Below are positions 26,660 to 52,708 of a stretch of DNA of 64,000 nt, in pieces (position 1 is the first letter of the stretch; each line of letters begins with the position of its first letter). The notes under the pieces were generated by a model. That model was not told the origin of the DNA. It ran no database searches and worked only from the letters and a program-made list of their open reading frames with translations. The position numbers and the translations under genes were made by a program. This stretch comes from Candidatus Binataceae bacterium. Lineage in GTDB: Bacteria > Desulfobacterota > Binatia > Binatales > Binataceae. The DNA is taken from assembly GCA_035524375.1 (NCBI GenBank), contig DATKOZ010000033.1, positions 26,842-90,841 on the forward strand, written 5' to 3'.

Positions 26660-26790
26660 AGTAGAAACAGCAGACAGGGCTTGCCCCGTTGGATATAATC
26701 CCCGACCGGCCGGAGCTGCACAAGCCTTGCCACCTGAACCGATTTTCCGGTCCAGCCGTATATCGTACCGACGAGGAGGTCTCTCAGACG

Positions 26791-28686
26791 ATGTCGAGTC
26801 GCAAACGTCTTCTGCTTACGTTGACGATTTTATCGATAATATTTGCGGGCGGCACGATGGCGCCGGCCGATGATTCTCTTAAGGTGACCGGGGCGTTGCC
26901 CACCTCACCGCTGCCCGCGCCGGCCACGTCCGGAACAATTCAGCTCAACGCCCAGCCGATTGCGCCGCAACAGGCTCCGCCGGAAAACCTTTCTCCGTCG
27001 GTGTTGACGGCGCCGTTTGAACAGCGCGATTCGGCGCTCGATCTTCCGGCCATCTTTGGCCACCAATGGTCGTTGACCAAGGAGTCCGCGCCGGAAAGCC
27101 TCATCAGCGAGCGATACTTGCGCTCGCAGGATTCAAATGCCCGCGGAGTTACACTCAAAGAGTCCATCTATATTGCGCTGCGCAACAACCCGGGGCTGCA
27201 GGCGTCGGCGCTGGATCCGATCGCATCGATGGAATCGGTTCGGCAGGCCAACGGCGCATTCGACCCGAACATCACCTCGCAGGGCGACATCATCAAGAAC
27301 GTCCAGCCCACGACCAACATCCTGCAAACCGGCAACCACGTCGAGACGTATACCCAGAAAAACTACGACTGGAATTTCGGCATCAACAAGGTGTCGTCGA
27401 TTACCAACGGCACTTGGGGCGTGACTTTCAACAACGATCGCTCGTTGTCGAACTCGTCGTTCGCCGGCGTGAACCCCTCTTACACTCCTACGCTCGCCCT
27501 GTCGCTTTCGCAGCCGCTGTTGCAGAACTTCGGATGGAAATTCGCAACGATCAATGTTCGCATCGCCGAGTCGGGCCAACGCCAGGCGCAATGGAATTTC
27601 GGCCAGACGTTGCAAGACTTCGTGGAGAGGATCGGCGGCGAATATTGGAACGTCGTGCTCGCCGAGGAAAACCTGGACGTCGCTCGCGCGGCACTGCGCT
27701 TCAATCAGGACCTAGTCCGCCAGAATGCGATTAGCGTGAAGGTTGGAACCCTTGCGCCAATCGACCTGCAGGAGGCGCAATCGGCGGCCGCCACCGCGGA
27801 GGCCAATGTGTTTACCGCCGAGGCCAACCTGAAGAATACGCGCAGCCAGTTGCGCGAGGATGTGATGTTTAATCCTTACGGCACGTTCCTTCCTGCGGAA
27901 CTTGAGCCGATTACGCGGCCGGCTCCGGAGGAGAAAATGACAATGGACGAGAACCGGGCGCTTGAGCTTGCCGTTCAATACCGGCCCTCGCTGGCCGGAA
28001 TGCGCGAGGCGATCCGTGGCGCGCTTATGCAGGAAAAATTCTCCGAAAACCAGGTACTGCCGCAGTTGAACCTCGGCACGCAGTTCGGAATCAATTCAAC
28101 CGCCGGAACGACTCCTTGCCTTAGTACCAGCTCCGCAGTTGGGAATTGCACCCCACTGGGCGGTGGTACGGGCAGCCAGCTTCCTTTCGGTGGAATCTAT
28201 GGCGACGCTCTCAATCGCCTGTGGGGGTTCAGCTTCTACAATTATGCCGCCGTGCTGACCTTCCAGGTGCCGCTGGATAACGCCACCGCCCGCGCCGCGC
28301 TGTCCCAGGCTCGCATCCAGTACGAACAGCAGCGCGCACAATATCGTGCCGCGCTGGCACAGGCGGTCGTTGACGTGCAGAGCGCCCTGTCCAATCTGTA
28401 CGCCGACCAGAAGCGCGCCACCGCGACCGCGCAGGCAACCTACTATGCGCGCCAATCACTGCATGACGAGGAAGTTCGTTTCCGCGTGGGGTTGGCGACA
28501 ACCCACGACCTGCTGCAATTCCAGGAGGAAGAAGTCAGCGCGGAGGGTAACCAGGTGCAGGCTGAGGTCGATTTGGAGAACGCGAAGCTCGCGATGGGCC
28601 ACGCAACCGGCACGCTGTTGCAATCATTTCAGATCGATTTCGACGTGAAGGACCCGCACGACACGCCGTGGTACGCGGCCTTCTAG
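26791..28686 (+). CDS. TolC-like outer-membrane efflux protein (OEP family), unusually long (~630 aa)
   Basis: ATG 26791 (MSSRKRLLLTLTILSIIFAGGTMA signal). OEP repeats recognisable in two halves (LKESIYIALRNNPGLQAS...; VVDVQSALSNLYADQKR...), with long Gln/Ala-rich helical segments. Confidence 0.75.
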   Translation: MSSRKRLLLTLTILSIIFAGGTMAPADDSLKVTGALPTSPLPAPATSGTIQLNAQPIAPQQAPPENLSPSVLTAPFEQRDSALDLPAIFGHQWSLTKESAPESLISERYLRSQDSNARGVTLKESIYIALRNNPGLQASALDPIASMESVRQANGAFDPNITSQGDIIKNVQPTTNILQTGNHVETYTQKNYDWNFGINKVSSITNGTWGVTFNNDRSLSNSSFAGVNPSYTPTLALSLSQPLLQNFGWKFATINVRIAESGQRQAQWNFGQTLQDFVERIGGEYWNVVLAEENLDVARAALRFNQDLVRQNAISVKVGTLAPIDLQEAQSAAATAEANVFTAEANLKNTRSQLREDVMFNPYGTFLPAELEPITRPAPEEKMTMDENRALELAVQYRPSLAGMREAIRGALMQEKFSENQVLPQLNLGTQFGINSTAGTTPCLSTSSAVGNCTPLGGGTGSQLPFGGIYGDALNRLWGFSFYNYAAVLTFQVPLDNATARAALSQARIQYEQQRAQYRAALAQAVVDVQSALSNLYADQKRATATAQATYYARQSLHDEEVRFRVGLATTHDLLQFQEEEVSAEGNQVQAEVDLENAKLAMGHATGTLLQSFQIDFDVKDPHDTPWYAAF

Positions 28687-31628: not shown

Positions 31629-32465
31629 GTGACCAGATTTGCGGCCTGCTTCCTATTGGTGTTCGGCGAGCTCGCGCTCGGCGGAATGTTCGCGCTCGCA
31701 ATTCCGCCCTTCTTCAAGGTCGAGCGAGGTTTTTATAAATCGAGCGCGTCGGTTTATCTCGTAGCCGGGCTTGTGACAGCGATCGGGTTGGCTTTTCTGG
31801 CCATTCGGGGCGGAGCCTCCGAAGGCCCGAGTGCGGCCGCGCTCTGGACGGCAGCGGGATTTTGGACGCTCTTTTCCGCCGTCTTTGCGACATACCTTTA
31901 CACGCTGTGGTTCGACAATGGATGGCTGCGGGCGCGGTCGTTTACTCTAGGCTTGGGCATGGGAATCATGGCACTGGCGTTCAATGCGATTATCCTGACG
32001 CCGGCAGGATTCGGCATTGCCGCTGATGTCGGAGCCGTACTTACGGCCCTCACTTCCGGCTTGGTACTGGGCCTGACCAGCGGCGCGATGCTGTTTGGCC
32101 ATTGGTACCTGATCGACTTGGAGATGCCGGTCGACTATCTGCGCACTTTTATGAGGGTATTGGTAGGTGCGATCATCGCAAACATTGGCGCTACACTCGT
32201 CTCGGTGGTGCTCCTGTGGCTGGCCGGAGGAACCATGGGCGCAGGTGCAGTTGGATCGCTGTTAGGCCCCAATCTTATGCTCGGTACGATGTGGTTTGCA
32301 TTAGGGCCGGCGGCAACAATCGTACTAGTGTGGATGTGCTGGCAGACGCTCAAAATCCCGCAGACGATGGCAGCGACCGGATTACTTTATATTGCGGTAA
32401 TGTCAGTATTAGTTGGAGAAATGCTAAGCCGGTTCATCCTTTTTCGCACCTCTGTCCCCCTTTGA
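31629..32465 (+). CDS. Polytopic integral membrane protein (7-8 TM), unknown function
   Basis: 278 aa, almost entirely hydrophobic helices separated by short loops. Confidence 0.55.
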   Translation: MTRFAACFLLVFGELALGGMFALAIPPFFKVERGFYKSSASVYLVAGLVTAIGLAFLAIRGGASEGPSAAALWTAAGFWTLFSAVFATYLYTLWFDNGWLRARSFTLGLGMGIMALAFNAIILTPAGFGIAADVGAVLTALTSGLVLGLTSGAMLFGHWYLIDLEMPVDYLRTFMRVLVGAIIANIGATLVSVVLLWLAGGTMGAGAVGSLLGPNLMLGTMWFALGPAATIVLVWMCWQTLKIPQTMAATGLLYIAVMSVLVGEMLSRFILFRTSVPL

Positions 32466-32733: not shown

Positions 32734-35700
32734 ATGAAGAGTACTGAAGGACGGGTCCGGCTTGGAACGATCGCGATCTTTAGCGCGGTCGCAATGGTCA
32801 TATTTGCTACCGCGATTCTGACTACACCGCGCGCCCAGCAGAATGCAGTCGCGGCCGCGTCAGCAACCCCTAGTTTGCCTTTTAGACCGTTTCTGCCGCC
32901 CGCAATCGCTCCCGACGGGTCAGCCCGAGTCACAACTAGCACAACCGCCAGCGCCAATATCGTATTAAATTTTCCAACTTCCGTGACTGCGGGCGATATT
33001 TGTGTCGCGGGTATCAATTTCAGTTCGTCCAGCGGTGCCGGCAACACCCGCACGGTGAATACTGTTCCTACTGGATGGACTCTGGTCCGGACCGATACCG
33101 CCACCGGTACGAATAATGGCACCAATGCCAACCAGCAGGGCTTCATTTACTGGTATAAGAACGGCGGCGCGAGCGGGACCGAGGGAGGCACAACGGCCAC
33201 TTGGGTATTGAATGCGAATTACGCCGATTTGGTCGGATGGATCCAATGCTTCAAAGGAGTCGATGCCAACGTGCCGATCGATTCGCTGAATCCAACCGGA
33301 AGCGGCGTCAACGGCGGCAGCGCCAACGTCGGAACTGTCACCGTTCCAGCGCTGGGTACGCTAAACCGCGCCGGTGACACCGTTATCCTGAACTGCTCGA
33401 TCGCCAACGGAGCCGGCACATACACAAGCCCGGCGATTCCGGTAGGTGTGTTTACGACGCAGAGCGTCGGCACGGCCGGAGCCGGAATCGTAGCGGGTAC
33501 GCACGCTGACGCCGCCGCATATACGGGAGTTGATGCGACCACGACCGCTCCCGCCGCACAGGCGTGCACCAACAATGGCACCAACGGCAGAATGGTCGGC
33601 GAACAGATCGCCCTGCAGCCGTCGGTTACGCCCGGAGCTTGCACTGCGCTCAACTACGGCGACTTCAGTTCCACCTCGGGGCTAACCTTGCTCGGCAGCA
33701 CGATCCAGAACGGCAATGCGCTGGAGTTGACGCCGGCCAGCGGCAACCAGCTAGGGGCACTATGGGGCTCCAGTCAAATCGATGTTGCGGACGGATTTAT
33801 CGCGAGTTTCGCATTTTCACTCACTAATCCCTCGACCCCTCCGGCCGACGGCATCACTTTCACGATTCAGAACGAGGCTCTGACCGCGATCGGCGATACT
33901 TTGGCCGGCGGCGGCGGCATCGGTTATAACGATATAACCGACGCACTCACCGTCGAGTTCGATGTATTCAATAACGGCGTGGGCGGAACTTGCCCCACTT
34001 GCTATAACGACCCCAACGCAAATCACATCGCAGTACAAAGTTGCGGCACCGCCGCCAACGGGCCAAACCCGGCCTGCCAACTGGGCATTCAGGCGACGCT
34101 GCCCAATACGATGTCGGACGGCGCCGTGCATACCGCCACGATCGTATACGATCCGGGCACGTTGGAAATCTATTATGACAACGGCGCAACGCCGGTACTT
34201 CAGGTGCCGGTTGATTTGGCAACCCTCCTGAGTTTGACCGGTGGCAACTCGGCGTGGGTTGGATTCACTTCTTCGACCGGTGGGTCGTTTGAACAGACCA
34301 ATCTGTTCAATTTCTTTGCTGCCCAGGGACAGGAATGCGCCACTCCGACTCCGACGGCAACTTCGACTACAACGTTGACACCGTCGATTACACGGACTCC
34401 AACCACTACAGCGACGGCTTCTGCAACACGGACGCCGACCGCGACAATCACCCGGACGCCGACGGCTACCGTTTCGCCAACGACCACGGCAACCAGGACC
34501 GCGACGCTTTCTCCGACTTCCACAGTCACCGCCACATCGACGCTTACGCGGACAGCCACATCAACGGCTACTGCGACTTCGACCGCTACAGTGACCGCAA
34601 CTCTATCGCCGACCATTACTACTACGGCGACAATTTCGCCGACCTCAAGTATCACCGCGACTTCGACCACGACCGCGACGCCAACAGCCACTTCAACATC
34701 GACGCCGCTGGTAAACATTTCGGTTACGCCGACGCCCGTCGCTTTCCCAACGGTAACGATTGGCACTCCGCAGTCTCAGTTCGTTGTCATTACGAATTCC
34801 GATCCTACGAATCCGCTTGTCTTTAGTTCTTTCAATACGACTGACACGACCGCGACCGGAAGTACGCCAAACGAATGGAGCGTGACCGGAGCCGTCGATG
34901 GCGCCATCCCGGCATGTGTTGCGGGAACACCTGTGCCGCCGGGAACTTCCTGCGCTCTGCAGGTTACGCTGTCTCCAAACGCAGCCAACGGAGATGACGT
35001 CACGGTTACCGGTAATCTGACGCTGAACGGCAACATCTCGCCGGGCGGCTCAACCACAATTTCGCTGCATGGGACTGGGCAATGGGCCAACGTCAGCGCG
35101 ACCGCCTCGCCCACGCCGCTCGCGTTCGGAACGGTTCAGGTTGGGACTCCTCAGACTAAGACTTTGACCATCACCAACACCGACGCCACCAATCCGCTCT
35201 ACATCACCTCGCTGGGCGCATCCGACACCACTGCCGGCTACTCTGGCCCCGATGAGTTCTCAATTGTCGGTGGAACTTGCAGTGCGGCGACCGATGGGTC
35301 CAATCCGGTGGCTCCGGGCGGCTCATGCACAGTAGTCGTGCAGCTAGCACCGAATGCCGCCAACGGCGACGGGGTGGGCGTCACAGGCCAACTAGCGGTG
35401 AATGGCAACCTGACGGGCGGACCGTTGGATGTCTCAATGACGGGAACCGGCCAGTGGCCTTCAGTCGCCGCGACCGCCTCGCCTACACCGATCGCATTCG
35501 GAACTGTGCAGGTTGGGACTCCGCAGACTAAGACCCTGACCATCACGAATACCGACGCAACCAATCCGCTCTACATCACATCGCTGGGAGCATCGGATAC
35601 GACCGCCGGCTACACCGGTCCCAATGAATTTTCGATCGTGGGCGGTACCTGCACGGCGGCAACCAACGGTTCCAATCCGGTACCTCCGGGCGGCTCGTGC

Positions 35701-37413
35701 ACGGTGATCGCGCAACTCTCGCCCAATACGGTCAATGGCAATGGCGCAAGCATTACCGGCCAGTTGTCCGTGAACGGGAATCTGACCGGCGGACCGCTCA
35801 ATGTGGCGATGACCGGAACCGGCCAATGGCCCAATACCACCGTATCGCCCAGTTCCAATCCGTTGAACATTGGAACGGTTTTCGTCGGAACTACGGGAAC
35901 CGGCATACTGACGATTACGAACACCGGAACAAATCCGCTGTTCATCACGAGCACCGGAACTACCGACACCACCAGTGGCTATACTGGAACCAACGAGTGG
36001 GGAGTGACCAGCGGAGGAATTAATCCGTGCCCCGTGGCTCCTGCCAGCATTCCCCCGGGAAGCTCTTGTACTCTCGTCGTGAGCTTGGATCCATCGGTAT
36101 CGAACGGCGACAACACGACCATCACCGGAACCCTCACCATAGGTGATAATACGACCGGCGGAACGACGACGGTCAACCTGACGGGGACCGGCGAATGGCC
36201 GCAGGTCGTCGCATCTCCATCTCCTACTCCGCTCGCCTTCGGCGCAGTAAACGTCGGGGCTCCAGTGACTAAAACACTGACGATCAAAAATGAAGATGCT
36301 ACCAACCCGCTATACCTCACCTCGATAACGCCTACCGATACCACCGCTGGCTACACGGGTCCGGATGAATTCTCCGTCACCGGAGGCACCTGTAGCACTG
36401 CCACCGATGGCTCCAATCCGCTTGCTCCGGGAGCCTCCTGCACGGTTCAGGTGACGCTGTCTCCTCAACCGATCAATGGCAATGGGACGAGCATCACCGG
36501 CCAGTTGTCGATAAATGGCAACATCACCGGCGGGCCCCTGAACGTATCCATGACTGGGACCGGCACCGGCATAACGACTGTAAGCGTGAGCCCGGCTTCG
36601 TGCTTTGCGGGCGCCGTGGTGGAGGGAAACACGTCAACGTTCTGCGTATTCACGGTGAGCAACACCGGCTTTGTGAATCATATGCTCGTGAGCAACATTG
36701 CCCTCGACGACTCGCTGGATTCCGGGGTGTTCTTCACCGATTGCCAGGCGCCGGGCGGAACCCCCGCACAGTCGCAATGCTCAATCAATGTGGCGTTCAC
36801 TCCACAGACCCTTGGGCCGTACACGATCCACATGAATATCACCGATAACGCGTTGTCCAGTCCGCAAACAGTGACAGTAACGGGGACTGGAACGATGCCC
36901 CCAAACACCACCGACACGCTGCTGCCGAATCCCTTGGACTTCGGCGGCGCGCCGGTAGCGCAGCCGACGGAGGCATTCCTGACAGTAACCAACACCGGAT
37001 TTACCAATCCGTTGGTGCTGCAGACGTTGAACGTTACGGACACGACGCCGGGTTACACGGGCGCCAATGAATTTGCATTGGTGCCTGCGGATTCGAACTG
37101 TCCGACTGCGCCCGCGGGGCTGGGACCAGGCGCAAGCTGCATATTGGCAATTAACCTGACTTCGGATGCGTCAAACGTTGACCAGACGATCACCGGAACG
37201 CTGACGGTGACTGACAACACGGCTGGTAGTCCGCAGACGGTGAGCCTGACCGGGTACGGAGTGTCGGGGATAACACCGGATGGAGATTGCTACACCGCTT
37301 CGAGCGGGGCGTGCGATTCGACGCAATCCAATCCGGGCTTCTCCGGCCAGTCGTGCCTGATAGACTCCGGAACCTGCACGAATACTGGAGGCCCAGGGTG
37401 CCAGTGCCAGTAA
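32734..37413 (+). CDS. Giant secreted surface protein / putative lectin adhesin: signal peptide, N-terminal region of unknown fold, legume-lectin-like domain, Thr/Ala/Ser-rich linker, 7 tandem Ig-like (choice-of-anchor-D type) repeats, Cys-rich C-terminus
   Basis: Start chosen at ATG 32734 (MKSTEGRVRLGTIAIFSAVAMVIFATAIL).
- Lectin_legB-like motifs: ASFAFSL...DGITFTIQNE, LTVEFDVFNNG, NHIAVQS, AWVGFTSSTGG.
- A ~115-residue Thr/Ala/Ser-rich linker (TPTPTATSTTTLTPSITRTPTTTATA...TSTSTP).
- Repeats with the motif ...FG.V.VG....K.LTI.N....PL.I.S.......F.....C......PG.SC...V.L.P...G.
- C-terminal GDCYTASSGACDSTQSNPGFSGQSCLIDSGTCTNTGGPGCQCQ. Confidence 0.85.
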   Translation: MKSTEGRVRLGTIAIFSAVAMVIFATAILTTPRAQQNAVAAASATPSLPFRPFLPPAIAPDGSARVTTSTTASANIVLNFPTSVTAGDICVAGINFSSSSGAGNTRTVNTVPTGWTLVRTDTATGTNNGTNANQQGFIYWYKNGGASGTEGGTTATWVLNANYADLVGWIQCFKGVDANVPIDSLNPTGSGVNGGSANVGTVTVPALGTLNRAGDTVILNCSIANGAGTYTSPAIPVGVFTTQSVGTAGAGIVAGTHADAAAYTGVDATTTAPAAQACTNNGTNGRMVGEQIALQPSVTPGACTALNYGDFSSTSGLTLLGSTIQNGNALELTPASGNQLGALWGSSQIDVADGFIASFAFSLTNPSTPPADGITFTIQNEALTAIGDTLAGGGGIGYNDITDALTVEFDVFNNGVGGTCPTCYNDPNANHIAVQSCGTAANGPNPACQLGIQATLPNTMSDGAVHTATIVYDPGTLEIYYDNGATPVLQVPVDLATLLSLTGGNSAWVGFTSSTGGSFEQTNLFNFFAAQGQECATPTPTATSTTTLTPSITRTPTTTATASATRTPTATITRTPTATVSPTTTATRTATLSPTSTVTATSTLTRTATSTATATSTATVTATLSPTITTTATISPTSSITATSTTTATPTATSTSTPLVNISVTPTPVAFPTVTIGTPQSQFVVITNSDPTNPLVFSSFNTTDTTATGSTPNEWSVTGAVDGAIPACVAGTPVPPGTSCALQVTLSPNAANGDDVTVTGNLTLNGNISPGGSTTISLHGTGQWANVSATASPTPLAFGTVQVGTPQTKTLTITNTDATNPLYITSLGASDTTAGYSGPDEFSIVGGTCSAATDGSNPVAPGGSCTVVVQLAPNAANGDGVGVTGQLAVNGNLTGGPLDVSMTGTGQWPSVAATASPTPIAFGTVQVGTPQTKTLTITNTDATNPLYITSLGASDTTAGYTGPNEFSIVGGTCTAATNGSNPVPPGGSCTVIAQLSPNTVNGNGASITGQLSVNGNLTGGPLNVAMTGTGQWPNTTVSPSSNPLNIGTVFVGTTGTGILTITNTGTNPLFITSTGTTDTTSGYTGTNEWGVTSGGINPCPVAPASIPPGSSCTLVVSLDPSVSNGDNTTITGTLTIGDNTTGGTTTVNLTGTGEWPQVVASPSPTPLAFGAVNVGAPVTKTLTIKNEDATNPLYLTSITPTDTTAGYTGPDEFSVTGGTCSTATDGSNPLAPGASCTVQVTLSPQPINGNGTSITGQLSINGNITGGPLNVSMTGTGTGITTVSVSPASCFAGAVVEGNTSTFCVFTVSNTGFVNHMLVSNIALDDSLDSGVFFTDCQAPGGTPAQSQCSINVAFTPQTLGPYTIHMNITDNALSSPQTVTVTGTGTMPPNTTDTLLPNPLDFGGAPVAQPTEAFLTVTNTGFTNPLVLQTLNVTDTTPGYTGANEFALVPADSNCPTAPAGLGPGASCILAINLTSDASNVDQTITGTLTVTDNTAGSPQTVSLTGYGVSGITPDGDCYTASSGACDSTQSNPGFSGQSCLIDSGTCTNTGGPGCQCQ
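34711..37260 (+). repeat. Seven tandem ~360-370-bp coding repeats inside the giant gene; units 2 and 3 (35086-35457, 35458-35829) are roughly 85% identical at nucleotide level (by-eye estimate)
   Basis: Unit boundaries are approximate: 34711, 35086, 35458, 35830, 36202, 36571, 36895. Long identical runs are shared by units 2 and 3 (ccgctctacatcac, ggttgggactcc.cagactaag). Confidence 0.7.
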
Positions 37414-37516
37414 TGGGATGGACGCCCGATGGCCAATCTTGGCGCAGGGTGCTATTCGTTCAGGCGTGGATGGTGAGTACGATAACGAGCGATTCCCCGG
37501 TAATTTCTACCAGGGA

Positions 37517-37771
37517 ATGATCCTCAAGCTCGACCGCGCGCGCGGCCGGGGAATCGTTCGTTCGCATAGCGGAAGGGAGATATCTTTCGAGTTTCCTTTC
37601 GTATCGGTGGTGGGCGCGGAAATCGGCGGAAAGATGCCGGGAATCGACCTGATCCGCGAAGGCGATGTAATCGGATTCGACGTCGGGTGGACATCCAAGG
37701 GGCTCCGCGTCACCACCATACAACCACCCTCTGGTGCCGCTTCCGCTTCCGGAGGCGGTCAGACCGCCTGA
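37517..37771 (+). CDS. Small hypothetical protein with possible divergent cold-shock/OB-fold-like architecture
   Basis: MILKLDRARGRGIVRSHSGREISFEFPFVSVVGAEIGGKMPGIDLIREGDVIGFDVGWTSKGLRVTTIQ... has G-x-V ... L-x-EG-x-x-V-x-F ... KG spacing reminiscent of CspA, but lacks the RNP motifs. The start is uncertain (track ORF begins at 37418). It is followed by a hairpin at 37782-37799. Confidence 0.3.
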   Translation: MILKLDRARGRGIVRSHSGREISFEFPFVSVVGAEIGGKMPGIDLIREGDVIGFDVGWTSKGLRVTTIQPPSGAASASGGGQTA

Positions 37772-41450: not shown

Positions 41451-42449
41451 ATGGAATTTCGGCTGACACAACGCCACTTTATGGCAGCCAACATCCTCCT
41501 TGGCGCGGCGCTCTTTTACGTCGCATGGCTGTGCTTCTTGGATATTCGTAACTTTACGCCGACCGGCGAGATTAACCCAAAGCACGTCTCGCAGCGTGCC
41601 GGCGCCACCGAGGCCGGCGAGCGAACCCGCGCCACTTACGATGAAATCGTCAAGCGCGATATTTTCAATCTCGTCCCGCTGGCTCCGGCGGCGGCTCCGC
41701 CGGTAGTAGACGAAGATTTGCACTTGGTGCTGATTGGCACGTCCCAACTGACGGCATCCAAGCCGTACGCAATCATCGAGGCTGAAGGCACCAATTCCCA
41801 AGTTCTGTATCGAATCGGCGACCAAGTCGAAAGTGCCGGCACGCTCGCCGCGATTGAGCATAGCCGGGTGTTAATCGATCACAATGGTCACCGGGTTGCG
41901 TTGGAGCTTCCAAAAGAAGAATTGTCCTCTACTGAACCGTCAGGTCTGTCTTCGGGAGCATCAGAAGCCCCACCCCGTCCCGCACCACACCCGCTAGCCG
42001 ACAAAGAACGATTGAAGCGGCGCCTGCGCAGCCGTCACCACCACCGGGGTGACGATTCGGGCGAGCCGGAAGGTGATGCGGCATCGCCTCGCGAACGCCT
42101 GGGAATGATCGCTCCACCCAGCTTTGGACCGGCGACCGGCGGATCGGGGCACTCGAAGTTCCCTGCGTCAAACTTGTCTCCAGAAAAACTCTCCTCGCAA
42201 ATCCACGTGGATCCGCACATGGTCGGTGGCAAAGTTGAAGGATATTCGGTTTCCCAAGTCAGCGCAGATTCGGTCTTCGATAAACTAGGCCTGAAGGTTG
42301 GAGACACAATCACTGCGCTTGATGGGCAACCGGTTACAAATCCTGCCCAAGGAATCATTTTCCTTCAGTCGATCCCTAATCGTTCGGCAATCGACATGAC
42401 GGTTACCCGCAACGGTTTTCCGATCCAGCTTCACCTCACTCTGCGCTAG
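41451..42449 (+). CDS. GspC-like protein: N-terminal TM anchor, secretin-interacting 'HR'-like region, low-complexity linker, C-terminal PDZ domain
   Basis: TM: ILLGAALFYVAWLCFL. HR-like: LHLVLIGTSQLTASKPYAIIEAEGTNSQVLYRIGDQVESAGTLAAIEHSRVLIDHNGHRVALEL. PDZ: GGKVEGYSVSQVSADSVFDKLGLKVGDTITALDGQPVTNPAQGIIFLQSI. The start abuts the gshA stop. Confidence 0.6.
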   Translation: MEFRLTQRHFMAANILLGAALFYVAWLCFLDIRNFTPTGEINPKHVSQRAGATEAGERTRATYDEIVKRDIFNLVPLAPAAAPPVVDEDLHLVLIGTSQLTASKPYAIIEAEGTNSQVLYRIGDQVESAGTLAAIEHSRVLIDHNGHRVALELPKEELSSTEPSGLSSGASEAPPRPAPHPLADKERLKRRLRSRHHHRGDDSGEPEGDAASPRERLGMIAPPSFGPATGGSGHSKFPASNLSPEKLSSQIHVDPHMVGGKVEGYSVSQVSADSVFDKLGLKVGDTITALDGQPVTNPAQGIIFLQSIPNRSAIDMTVTRNGFPIQLHLTLR

Positions 42450-49995: not shown

Positions 49996-51285
49996 TTAAT
50001 GCGTCAAGCGCAGCAGAATCTTGGAGGCGATTAACAAAAATGCGTTGTTAAGATCCGCTGAGGTTTGCGCCAAGATTGCCGCCCCTTGGGGTAGATTCGG
50101 GTTGTAGCTGGGGCTGGCAGGATCGTTGGCAATTTCTTGCAGGTAGGTCATATCCACCTTATCGCCCATGCCTAGAGCGTAAATCTCGACTCCAGGATTC
50201 TCCTCCTGCATCGACAGCGCCACTTGCTCAGCACGATATTTTGCTTCATTAGACACGTTGGTATTATTCTGAGTCATCGTCGGCGGTGACAATTGCGAAG
50301 GGAAGGTGGTCGGTGGGCAACTGCTGCATGCATTGCTGCTGCAGGTGCTGTCCGAGCTCCCCGGCATTGCACAGAAGCTATTAGCCCCGTGACACCAGCC
50401 GACAGCCGCTTCCGGAGGTGCGCAGCCGCCGTAAATTGTGAGGTGACTGCCGGAACTACCACTGCAGCCACCTCCCGACTTACAGGTCAAGGTGTCCTCG
50501 ATCATGTTGGCCCAGCCGTCGGTGAAAAAAACCGCAACCCGCACTGTGTTCTGTCCAGCTGGAATCGCAATAGTATTAATTTGAGTTTGCCCAGCCGCCA
50601 GTGCAGCTTCCGCGAACGTTCCACCCTGGAATGATATCGAGCCAACGTTTGAGATGATGGCTGATTTGAAGGGCTGGGTCATGGCCACGCCGGTGGTTGC
50701 GACCGTCCCAAAATGAATTTCGGCCACGTGATCCTGCGTATCGTCGAAATAGTTGATGAAACTATCAACTGCGGGAGGAAGCGCCGTGGAGCCTCCGTTC
50801 CTTGTCATCGATGCCGAATTATCCAGGACCAGCGACATGACCAGCTTGGCGCGGGTGGCTTGGGCGCTCCCGCTGACCGATACCTGATTAAATTGGTTAA
50901 AAATTGCAAGAAAGAACGGGTTGACGGTAACTGTGCCGCTGACATTGACCAGTTTGTTGCCGTTGGAATCTGTTCCAACCGAGAATGAAAAAGTCGGGGT
51001 AATGCTGTTATTAGTAAATTGCGAGGTCGAGCTCATGTTCAAGGTGTAGGCCGTCTGAGCAAGACTTTGCGCGGTGGAATTGCCCTGATAAAGATTGCGC
51101 ATCCCTTCCAGCGCCGCGGCATCTAGCGCCCGGGATAACGCCGACTGCTCGACATAGATCATGCCAAAGTCGATCGCCATGCCGGCAAAAACGATAAGGA
51201 CCGGAATCATGAGCGCCAGCATCACTAGGATCTGGCCGGGTTTGCTCTCTTTAATCTTTTGCTTCCAGCGAGCCGACATAATCAT
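49996..51285 (-). CDS. TadG-like pseudopilin with C-terminal von Willebrand factor A domain
   Basis: Tad N-terminus: GQILVMLALMIPVLIVFAGMAIDFG. vWA MIDAS-like: VMSLVLDNSASM ... VFFTDGWAN. Confidence 0.7.
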   Translation of the reverse strand: MIMSARWKQKIKESKPGQILVMLALMIPVLIVFAGMAIDFGMIYVEQSALSRALDAAALEGMRNLYQGNSTAQSLAQTAYTLNMSSTSQFTNNSITPTFSFSVGTDSNGNKLVNVSGTVTVNPFFLAIFNQFNQVSVSGSAQATRAKLVMSLVLDNSASMTRNGGSTALPPAVDSFINYFDDTQDHVAEIHFGTVATTGVAMTQPFKSAIISNVGSISFQGGTFAEAALAAGQTQINTIAIPAGQNTVRVAVFFTDGWANMIEDTLTCKSGGGCSGSSGSHLTIYGGCAPPEAAVGWCHGANSFCAMPGSSDSTCSSNACSSCPPTTFPSQLSPPTMTQNNTNVSNEAKYRAEQVALSMQEENPGVEIYALGMGDKVDMTYLQEIANDPASPSYNPNLPQGAAILAQTSADLNNAFLLIASKILLRLTH

Positions 51286-51292
51286 ACCCCTC

Positions 51293-51838
51293 CTAGAAAT
51301 ACGCCGCCTGATACATCTGCGTTGGCATCACAATATTTAGCATGGTGCCGATTGGCGTGATTGGCGTGAACTGGTAGCACACTTCGGTAATGTAAACCGT
51401 CATTCCCGAATTGAGTAGAGTAGCCGCGTTGGTTGGAACTGTCGCACTGGACCCGACGCCAGTGCCGACATGGCTCGTGCAATGATAGCCGCCGCCAGAG
51501 GCTTGGGCGGTGATCTTGTTCGAGTTCGAAATCTGCTGCACCGTCGTTAAAATAACGCCGCCATAGTGGGCCATATCCAACGGCGCACCACCGGAAACCA
51601 AAGCGGTGGCCGCAGTTGCAACGTCCGTCCCGCGGCACGTGATGCTGGAGCCCTCGCGGCTCAAACCAACCATCTCCTGTTCGTAATTCAGCGCCCGGCC
51701 GAACTCAATCAATCCGCACATCAGGCTCAGAAGAATCATCACGACCATCGCGAATTCAACCGCAGCTTGGCCGGATGACTGCGTCCGCGTTCTAATCCTA
51801 ACTCCATCTCGACGTTTTGAAGCCATAGTACTCTCCAA
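51293..51838 (-). CDS. TadE-like pseudopilin
   Basis: QAAVEFAMVVMILLSLMCGLIEFGRAL, the TadE N-terminal helix. Confidence 0.65.
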   Translation of the reverse strand: MESTMASKRRDGVRIRTRTQSSGQAAVEFAMVVMILLSLMCGLIEFGRALNYEQEMVGLSREGSSITCRGTDVATAATALVSGGAPLDMAHYGGVILTTVQQISNSNKITAQASGGGYHCTSHVGTGVGSSATVPTNAATLLNSGMTVYITEVCYQFTPITPIGTMLNIVMPTQMYQAAYF

Positions 51839-51852
51839 GCTTGGCCGCCCCG

Positions 51853-52398
51853 TTAGGGATTCTGACCCGGCGGGAACGGCTCGTTCTTGATGGTGGTACT
51901 CGCGACGATTGTATATTGGCCGCCGGGAAATATATTCGCCACAAACGGAGTGATGAACGGCACCGTGGTGGTCAGCGTTATTGTTACGACATCCAGCGGC
52001 CCTCCGCCGTTGTTATTGCTGGTCTGGCCCGCCGAGTTCACGCTGTTTACCGTAATGTTGGCAACCGAGGCACCCATCGAAGTTGCGCCGAACGCGGCAG
52101 TTGTGGCGTACGAGATAATCGAATTGATCCGGCTCAGATTCCCTCCTGAACCATTGGGCAGCTTATTGCCTGTCGAAGCAAACCTGCCGGCCTCTTGCAC
52201 TGCCTGCTGGAGGTTCAGCTGAATAAAAAACATCCGCCCATAATCGACAATTGCAAAGGTTAGGAAAAAGAATAGCGGTGCGACCAACGCAAATTCGACT
52301 ACATCCTGCCCGCTCATTGATCCCAAGCGCCGGTTTCTCAACCGGCGTGGCAGAATACTGCAGGCAGCCTCCGCTCTGCGCTTGGCTACAGTTGTCAT
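51853..52398 (-). CDS. TadE-like pseudopilin
   Basis: Start MTTVAKRR... then GQDVVEFALVAPLFFFLTFAIVDYGRMFF. Trimmed from the track start at 52473. Confidence 0.65.
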   Translation of the reverse strand: MTTVAKRRAEAACSILPRRLRNRRLGSMSGQDVVEFALVAPLFFFLTFAIVDYGRMFFIQLNLQQAVQEAGRFASTGNKLPNGSGGNLSRINSIISYATTAAFGATSMGASVANITVNSVNSAGQTSNNNGGGPLDVVTITLTTTVPFITPFVANIFPGGQYTIVASTTIKNEPFPPGQNP

Positions 52399-52708
52399 GA
52401 ATGACACCCTCCTAGGTCTGTCACATCGCGCGTGTCGAATTTTGGCGATGGCCCCTTCATGGCTGAGGAACACCCTCCCAAAATTTCCCGCGATCTTCCT
52501 CCCTCGCTATGCATCCGACCTACGATTTGCCGAGCCAAGGACCCGTAATATGGTCACTGGCGCCACAAATCTTATCCTCCGATTCGGATTTACGCATACA
52601 ATATGCCACAAAATTAAACCCGTCAAGGCTCATATTTCTCTGGCGGGAAATCCGACCCGTTGCTCGGGTGCCACAATTAGTGGCAGCCACGCATATCGCC
52701 GACAACTA

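Follow-up and report, generated by a model that had tools for sequence, protein, structure and literature searches.

A predicted lectin-headed exoprotein of Candidatus Binataceae ending in a six-cysteine cassette that is shared by proteins with unrelated heads

Introduction

Choice-of-anchor families are named for the C-terminal anchoring signals that differ among their members. Cargo proteins of type IX secretion (by the T9SS; Por_Secre_tail/TIGR04183) are unrelated exported proteins with one conserved immunoglobulin (Ig)-like C-terminal domain (CTD), which serves both their secretion and their surface attachment. Enzymes bearing dockerins or carbohydrate-binding modules (CBMs) similarly combine varied heads and Thr/Pro-rich linkers with a small conserved terminal module, and the fungal versions of these modules are disulfide-rich and ~40 amino acids (aa) long. 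In VesB of Vibrio, a substrate of the type II secretion system (T2SS), an Ig-like domain directly precedes the GlyGly-CTERM sorting signal. Furthermore, proteins of ~808 aa from soil metagenomes (e.g., P0006, named “choice-of-anchor D domain-containing protein” by NCBI; one is from Terriglobales) comprise a signal peptide, an L-type (legume-like) lectin, and Ig-like domains, with a choice-of-anchor-D domain towards the C-terminus. Here, we describe a gene at positions 32734-37413 of a 64,000-nucleotide (nt) stretch from Candidatus Binataceae bacterium (assembly GCA_035524375.1, contig DATKOZ010000033.1, positions 26,842 to 90,841 of the forward strand; hereafter called the window), the product of which has an L-type lectin, choice-of-anchor-D repeats, and a Cys-rich C-terminus. 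To our knowledge, Binatia are abundant in soil and sediment and have no cultured representative, and we know of nothing on how their cell surface is built.

The last ~265 aa of the window protein, namely two Ig-like domains (R6 and R7) and a six-Cys tail, are called the cassette in this study and recur in a family of proteins. Like T9SS cargo, this family appends one conserved Ig-containing end to unrelated exported proteins, but the T9SS CTD models do not match the window protein in sequence, a Cys knob is absent from the T9SS CTD, and the T9SS is, as far as we know, a system of Bacteroidota and their relatives and not of Binatia. Like dockerin- and CBM-bearing enzymes, the family has varied heads, but these are propellers and lectins instead of recognisable glycoside hydrolases; no dockerin or CBM model matches, and no cohesin-like scaffold was found. 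The Ig-like domains of the window protein match the Pfam family HYDIN_VesB_CFA65-like_Ig, and it is such a domain that stands before the sorting signal in VesB, but neither a GlyGly-CTERM nor a terminal transmembrane helix is present. As for the ~808-aa proteins, their lectins are 42-46% identical to that of the window protein but stand directly behind the signal peptide. Neither the N-terminal domain nor the long Thr-rich linker is present in these proteins, they have no R6-R7 cassette or Cys tail, and their C-terminus consists of a few charged residues. A lectin on a repeat stalk had been called uncommon in bacteria in the first-pass annotation of the window, which was made from the sequence alone; uncommon it is, but the ~808-aa proteins show that it is not new. 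We regard the lectin head as ordinary; it adds one member to a domain family already known, in a type of architecture that is also known. The six-Cys tail, the cassette, and the ~240-aa N-terminal domain are uncatalogued, and nothing relevant was found in the literature on choice-of-anchor proteins, Binatia, and Cys-rich sorting domains.

A cassette shared by proteins with unrelated heads

The gene and its parts are as follows (window coordinates).

32734..37413, + strand: whole coding sequence, from the list of open reading frames (ORFs) and translation; 1,559 aa plus stop
32734..32865, + strand: Sec-type signal peptide or signal anchor (aa 1-44), the sole hydrophobic segment of the protein
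32866..33648, + strand: undescribed all-beta domain of ~230-240 aa (aa 45-305 modelled), from AlphaFold2 and rare relatives
33688..34299, + strand: L-type (legume-like) lectin (aa 319-522), from PF18483 and phmmer matches to solved legume lectins
34342..34713, + strand: Thr-rich low-complexity linker (aa 537-660), from a composition count
34714..36564, + strand: five choice-of-anchor-D Ig-like spacer repeats, R1-R5 (aa 661-1277), from NF012200 and Pfam Ig-like families
36565..37260, + strand: conserved Ig pair, R6 (aa 1278-1387, 4 Cys) and R7 (aa 1388-1509, 2 Cys), 71-78% identical to other cassettes
37261..37410, + strand: C-terminal six-Cys tail (Cys module at aa 1519-1559), with spacing shared in the family

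When the last 67 aa were used in a word-based search, one 82-aa product was hit (P0011, 78% identity), and its contig (L003) was found to carry two genes ending in an R6-like domain, an R7-like domain, and the Cys tail, one of them behind DUF7948/SBBP and PQQ-like propellers. Nine further loci with a complete tail (72-76% identity) were found when metagenomes were scanned with the tail alignment. In the fetched loci outside the window’s contig, the pattern C-x7-C-x13-C-x6-C-x7-C-x-[C/Y]-x-stop is present in 13 copies, each at the end of an ORF, and the last Cys position is occupied by Cys in 12 of them and by Tyr in one (L013); these 13 and the window protein make up the 14 tail copies that are compared below. 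When 5.8 billion proteins were searched with a profile, 11 cassette clusters were returned (P0021-P0031; E = 1e-155 to 5e-42, 66-78% identity), with a complete tail in eight (P0021-P0028) and a truncation or frameshift in the other three. The next matches were generic choice-of-anchor-D proteins, which are tail-less and at most 42% identical, leaving a sharp gap below the cassette clusters. Also, only distant, tail-less choice-of-anchor-D proteins (31-33% identity) were hit when genome contigs were scanned with the cassette by using patterns derived from R6.

All cassette-bearing entries with a named source belong to Candidatus Binataceae. Proteins encoded next to the gene in the window exactly match NCBI entries of Candidatus Binataceae bacterium (e.g., GlpK, HUO04778.1), and the tail-bearing proteins HUO06088.1 and HUO05863.1 share an NCBI accession block with the window proteins; the metagenome-assembled genome (MAG) therefore probably holds at least three cassette genes including that of the window. 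Complete members of the family are 1,247-2,918 aa long and have N-terminal signal peptides (in L011b, reading from the first Met gives 1,116 aa and loses the likely signal peptide, the full ORF being 1,388 aa), and family genes stand in tandem in L011, L013, and L014. Their heads are unrelated to each other (Kelch, NHL, SBBP, PQQ/BamB-like, and sortilin-like propellers), and Thr-rich linkers comparable to that of the window protein join the domains in all members.

As a separate observation, the largest member (L015:1469-10222, 2,918 aa) contains in its propeller regions four Cys motifs that read by eye approximately as C-T-G-x-G-x-P-[FL]-x-C-C-T-G-x-x-T-G-x-C. The generic choice-of-anchor-D proteins, in turn, can have a C-terminus different from the cassette, namely a hydrophobic helix followed by G-C-[GA]-G and then a beta-looking segment of ~45 aa; this end was noticed in L004:1-1539, L005:5954-13411, L006:5375-11305, L020:1885-2934, and L021:6923-12460, which come from a Binatia MAG, Bryocella, and Granulicella, with L020 and L021 being metagenome contigs.

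Conservation and structure of the six-Cys tail

The tail of the window protein is C-x7-C-x13-C-x6-C-x7-C-x-C-Q-COOH, which is acidic, free of Lys and Arg, and 15% Cys; it was first annotated as 43 aa with 8 Cys, but a count gives 41 aa (aa 1519-1559) with 6 Cys. Over 265 aa, the cassette is 66-78% identical to those of the other members with equal Cys spacing, and of the 14 tail copies, 13 agree exactly in this spacing, while Tyr replaces the last Cys in the remaining one (L013, corresponding to P0022). The final residue behind the last Cys is Gln or Leu in the pattern that defines the family. In the alignment of the 14 tails, 18 of the 51 columns are invariant (six Cys, five Gly, three Asp, and one each of Val, Leu, Thr, and Pro), and aromatic residues are also conserved (Tyr/Phe after the first Cys, and G-[FY]-S-G). 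When ten cassettes were compared pairwise by the Nei-Gojobori method, the median ratio of nonsynonymous to synonymous substitution rates (dN/dS) was 0.14 in R6, 0.18 in R7, and 0.105 in the tail, with a median dS of 0.92, 0.77, and 1.27, respectively. These values indicate that the cassettes are under purifying selection with synonymous sites near saturation, and the conservation of the cassette is therefore not a result of recent duplication or gene conversion.

The Cys-rich end, originally described as a cap, is not peculiar to this protein; it closes a ~265-aa cassette that at least 13 other genes carry as well. If the protein were a one-off lectin adhesin, its Cys end would be a mere stabilising cap, and any anchoring would have nothing to do with the C-terminus; the lectin and the stalk are indeed real, no known anchor was found, and the 64-kb window has no dedicated machinery. 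Nonetheless, the cap and two Ig domains occur together on those other genes behind different heads and under strong purifying selection, and 18 invariant positions out of 51 exceed the needs of a mere cap. The family evidence thus argues that the stabilising cap is largely refuted, and we consider a one-off adhesin very improbable.

No family in Pfam or NCBIfam was matched at E<=10 by either the isolated tail or the 14 family tails, the tail profile matched no PDB sequence at E<=10, and the whole protein matched nothing in Pfam/NCBIfam at E<=1 beyond the lectin, Ig-like, and choice-of-anchor-D families. Profiles of CBM1, CBM10/fungal dockerin, EGF-like, and cystine-knot modules are accordingly not matched by the tail (Pfam at E<=10; PDB sequences). 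Within the C-terminal 60 aa there is no hydrophobic helix (maximum Kyte-Doolittle value, KD19, of 0.14). The first-pass annotation had seen no LPXTG, PEP-CTERM, T9SS CTD, or autotransporter barrel, and this stands, with no known sorting domain of Pfam or NCBIfam matching the C-terminus; LPXTG, PEP-CTERM, GlyGly-CTERM, MYXO-CTERM, T9SS CTD, and autotransporter classes were rejected by sequence criteria, namely no model match and no C-terminal helix. Other candidates that we set aside are a type I secretion route, which is unlikely for a protein with a Sec signal and many Cys residues, and a metallothionein-like metal-binding tail, which is unlikely in an exported protein with a tail of only 15% Cys and conserved aromatics.

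AlphaFold2 models R6 and R7 of the cassette as two beta-sandwiches with a predicted local distance difference test score (pLDDT) of ~80, and the fold of this pair resembles domains of the ASH/HYDIN/CEP192 type. In another explanation, the protein would belong to a mucin-like matrix; the Thr-rich spacers would possibly be glycosylated, and the Cys knob would cross-link the protein by intermolecular disulfides, with family members or a Cys-rich envelope protein as partners, into an extracellular network. Gel-forming mucins have Pro/Thr/Ser-rich regions and a C-terminal Cys-rich domain, an architecture that the window protein would parallel with its 32 Cys residues and 19% Thr (composition count), and the many paralogues with the same end would permit hetero-oligomers. 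An even number of Cys residues (6) in fixed spacing, however, fits three internal disulfides, the natural variant with Tyr for the last Cys (L013/P0022) also counts against this explanation, no cystine-knot or other Cys-rich Pfam family is matched, and there is no evidence of glycosylation machinery. A mucin-like matrix protein is therefore improbable in our view, albeit less so than the one-off adhesin.

A possible handle for localisation or docking

The cassette is common to a family with otherwise unrelated heads and is therefore the best candidate for the anchoring or sorting element that the window protein appears to miss. The tail sits at the extreme C-terminus in every copy, which is exactly the usual site of the C-terminal signals of choice-of-anchor proteins, and we count this placement in favour of a handle. 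Given that it ends at least 13 other genes with differing heads, the cassette is probably a lineage-specific handle that places or holds proteins outside the cell. We hence propose that the window protein is an exoprotein that binds glycans and in which the C-terminal cassette common to the family acts as a handle for localisation or docking, and we put the probability of this proposal at about one half.

On this proposal, the protein would be exported via Sec by its N-terminal signal peptide and would fold and form its disulfides in the periplasm. It would then have to cross the outer membrane, for which the T2SS can be named only as a conjecture, and the cassette might also be recognised in this step. 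The T2SS is the only general route that we know for folded, disulfide-bonded proteins outside Bacteroidota, and we know of no sequence signature of its substrates. Most probably, the cassette would act by holding the protein at, or docking it onto, a partner common to the family on the surface or in the matrix. The N-terminal domain and the lectin would thereby be displayed at the distal end of the long spacer that the 124-aa Thr-rich linker and five Ig-like domains make up, and the lectin head would bind glycans.

Several points weigh against this proposal. A role in localisation is suggested only by the pattern of a conserved terminal module on varied cargo, and a shared binding or oligomerisation module would yield the identical pattern. 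The tail lacks a hydrophobic helix, so that it could not work in the manner of sortase, exosortase, or rhombosortase substrates, and AlphaFold2 gives no usable model of it (pLDDT 30-42 at cassette residues 219-265). Glycan binding by the lectin head is itself a prediction. The neighbourhoods of 11 loci share no gene besides family members themselves, be it for a partner, processing, or secretion, and the neighbours in the 64-kb window are housekeeping genes with no dedicated machinery among them. Furthermore, the product of L016:8564-12592 (Ga0335069_10000160) has an inverted architecture, in which the R6-R7 pair occurs twice directly behind the signal peptide, NHL propellers follow after a Thr-rich linker, and a Cys tail is missing; the Ig pair is therefore separable from the tail and can stand at either end of a protein, and the cassette is not obligatorily C-terminal.

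The tail-less Ig pair in L016 would also be in accord with a different function of the six-Cys knob, which might be a small distal binding module of the CBM1/CBM10 type or like a fungal dockerin, that is, a shared “sticky end” and not a sorting device. The knob would then bind an extracellular polymer or a scaffold protein, and the proteins would be either freely secreted or held by an uncleaved signal anchor, which the ~20-aa core of the signal would fit. In cellulases, Thr-rich linkers of this kind precede CBMs and dockerins, and such a linker is indeed found directly before the cassette in other family members; also, the tail is small with conserved aromatics and Asp. No CBM or dockerin of Pfam is, however, matched at E<=10, no PDB sequence is matched, and no candidate scaffold gene is nearby. 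Furthermore, if this 1,559-aa lectin protein were anchored in the inner membrane of a diderm cell, it would be left in the periplasm, an odd location for it, and classical AxA cleavage sites are seen by eye in other family members. A distal binding module is thus unlikely, while it deserves more weight than a mucin-like matrix.

Returning to the cassette as a handle, we can also formulate a narrower version, in which the cassette, or the 41-aa six-Cys tail alone, would be an undescribed sorting or docking domain limited to Candidatus Binataceae, and a receptor on the surface, a scaffold, or a translocon of the outer membrane would be its dedicated partner. This version is tentative and rather doubtful at present. 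If true, it would add to the short list of systems with one tag and many cargo proteins, namely LPXTG, PEP-CTERM, the T9SS CTD, and dockerin, and its interest would rise with the finding of a dedicated partner system. In any case, a conserved terminal module on many predicted exoproteins would provide a direct entry to the cell surface of Binatia; the cassette marks a set of putatively displayed or secreted proteins (lectins and beta-propeller binders) and could be used as a bait for partner machinery.

The lectin head and the spacer

The legume-lectin-like region proposed from the sequence was borne out by the L-type lectin models; in a Pfam scan, aa 319-522 score 95.7 bits with Lectin_L-type_dom (PF18483; PF00139 clan), for which the gathering cut-off is 78.3, and phmmer against solved structures hit the legume lectin 7elv (E = 3.7e-10) as well as ConA-type lectins. 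When aligned to 7elv, the lectin shows the motifs ADG/ADGITF (371), GGGGIGY (392), VEFDVFNN (407), and DPNANH (DP..NH; 430, to 431), and the metal-binding loop E-x-D-x-[FY]-x-N...D-P...H, the sugar-binding Asp (A-D-G), and the Gly loop are hence all present. As far as the alignment tells, the lectin retains the Ca/Mn-binding and sugar-binding motifs. The metal loop is broken by a GVGGTCPTC stretch (TCPTC insertion at 419) and is shorter in the ~808-aa homologues. Among the lectin relatives, we noticed that P0003 (334 aa) has an L-type lectin followed by a D/G-rich EF-hand-like repeat and a Cys-containing end, which look dockerin-like by eye; the lectin is the sole family reported for P0003 in Pfam.

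Between the lectin and the cassette, the Thr/Ala/Ser-rich linker described earlier (as ~115 aa) was recovered at aa 537-660, and its 124 residues include 59 Thr, 18 Ala, 16 Ser, and 12 Pro; the O-glycosylation suggested for it earlier is speculative. Seven stretches in the repeats that follow are matched by the NCBIfam model choice_anch_D (NF012200; 139.5 bits, cut-off of 45), and Pfam Ig-like families of the ASH/HYDIN/Cep192 type match the repeats as well. The count of seven repeats in the first-pass annotation therefore stands, but their description as near-identical does not; pairwise identity ranges from 20 to 83%, with only R2 and R3 being close (83%), R5 being 71-72% identical to R2 and R3, most of the other pairs being at 36-51%, and R6 at 20-31%. 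Indeed, only one array (372 nt x 2 copies, 35097-35831, 78% matches) was reported by Tandem Repeats Finder. R6 contains two Cys pairs and every other Ig repeat a single pair.

The N-terminal signal and an undescribed N-terminal domain

The only hydrophobic segment of the protein in the Kyte-Doolittle profile is at aa ~10-30, with a core of ~20 aa and Lys/Arg residues. A possible cleavage site, ASA|T, can be read by eye, and the signal region has no lipobox Cys.

The domain that follows matches nothing in Pfam, NCBIfam, or the PDB sequences, and a search with aa 1-535 gave lectin relatives only, leaving this domain unmatched. An exhaustive phmmer search of 1.84 billion representative proteins revealed only 22 relatives, in which the domain varies in position and sometimes occurs in two to five tandem copies; the companion domains are NHL and PQQ-like propellers, choice-of-anchor-D-like Ig, Rv2525c-like glycoside-hydrolase-like, and Laminin_G_3 domains, and once a T9SS tail. 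By eye, a domain of this type is also found within L015, and a similar-looking segment is present in L008. Two Cys, three Trp, one Pro, and P-x-D are invariant. AlphaFold2 with 13 sequences predicts an all-beta domain (pLDDT 83.7, predicted template modelling score [pTM] 0.85), for which Foldseek against the PDB gave no convincing analogue (best E of 1e-3, best TM score of <=0.25). We read it as a rare mobile extracellular module, predicted to be of the binding type. As a minor observation, P0069, P0070, P0074, and P0075 are made up of little other than two to five tandem domains of this type (~230 aa) with Pro-rich linkers between them, and no other recognisable domains were seen in these four.

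The gene and its assembly

The gene is a single long ORF on the + strand with the stop at 37413; the ATG at 32734 gives 1,559 aa, one more than the 1,558 aa first reported, and a start at the alternative TTG (32710) would lengthen the product to 1,567 aa. The same gene was called, again with 1,559 aa, in an independent assembly of the same population (ENA assembly ERZ27256510, 187.7-kb contig, locus L001), the contig of which was reached via the neighbouring glpK gene. The two versions differ at 12 nt, all in repeat R2 and confined to nt 2615-2681 of the gene (35348-35414 of the window, 67 nt); 11 of the 12 differences are synonymous, and the single residue change is I883V. This looks like an ambiguity of assembly or recombination between the similar repeats R2 and R3. 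The guanine-cytosine content across the gene is ~0.57-0.59, as in the remaining window. The ORF at 32734-37413 is a real gene for an acidic, Thr-rich, modular protein, predicted to be exported, of a diderm, uncultured soil bacterium (Candidatus Binataceae).

Genomic neighbourhood

The following features of the window lie outside the gene.

26689-28683: TolC-like OEP
31629-32465, + strand: polytopic membrane protein of 278 aa directly upstream of the gene, with no Pfam/NCBIfam match
37418-37771: ORF of 117 aa beginning 5 nt past the stop codon of the gene, with no family match
41451-42446: orphan GspC-like (T2SSC) gene with a PDZ domain, between the GCS2 glutamate-cysteine ligase gene and a GNAT gene
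49996-52473, - strand: Tad/Flp-pilus-like genes, one TadG-like with a VWA domain and one TadE-like

The TolC-like OEP, the GspC-like protein, and the Tad genes are the reason for which we consider the cell to be diderm. Other T2SS genes (gspD/E/F) are not present in the 64-kb window, and the neighbours are otherwise housekeeping genes, namely purN, grxC, those for GNAT acetyltransferases, glpK, the GCS2 ligase gene, sppA, uvrA/uvrB, and his genes. The 278-aa membrane protein was not found beside other family members. The 117-aa ORF shows its sole weak likeness to a retron Se72 effector model (E = 0.041, far under the cut-off of that model), and it is kept in the assemblies of L001 and L002.

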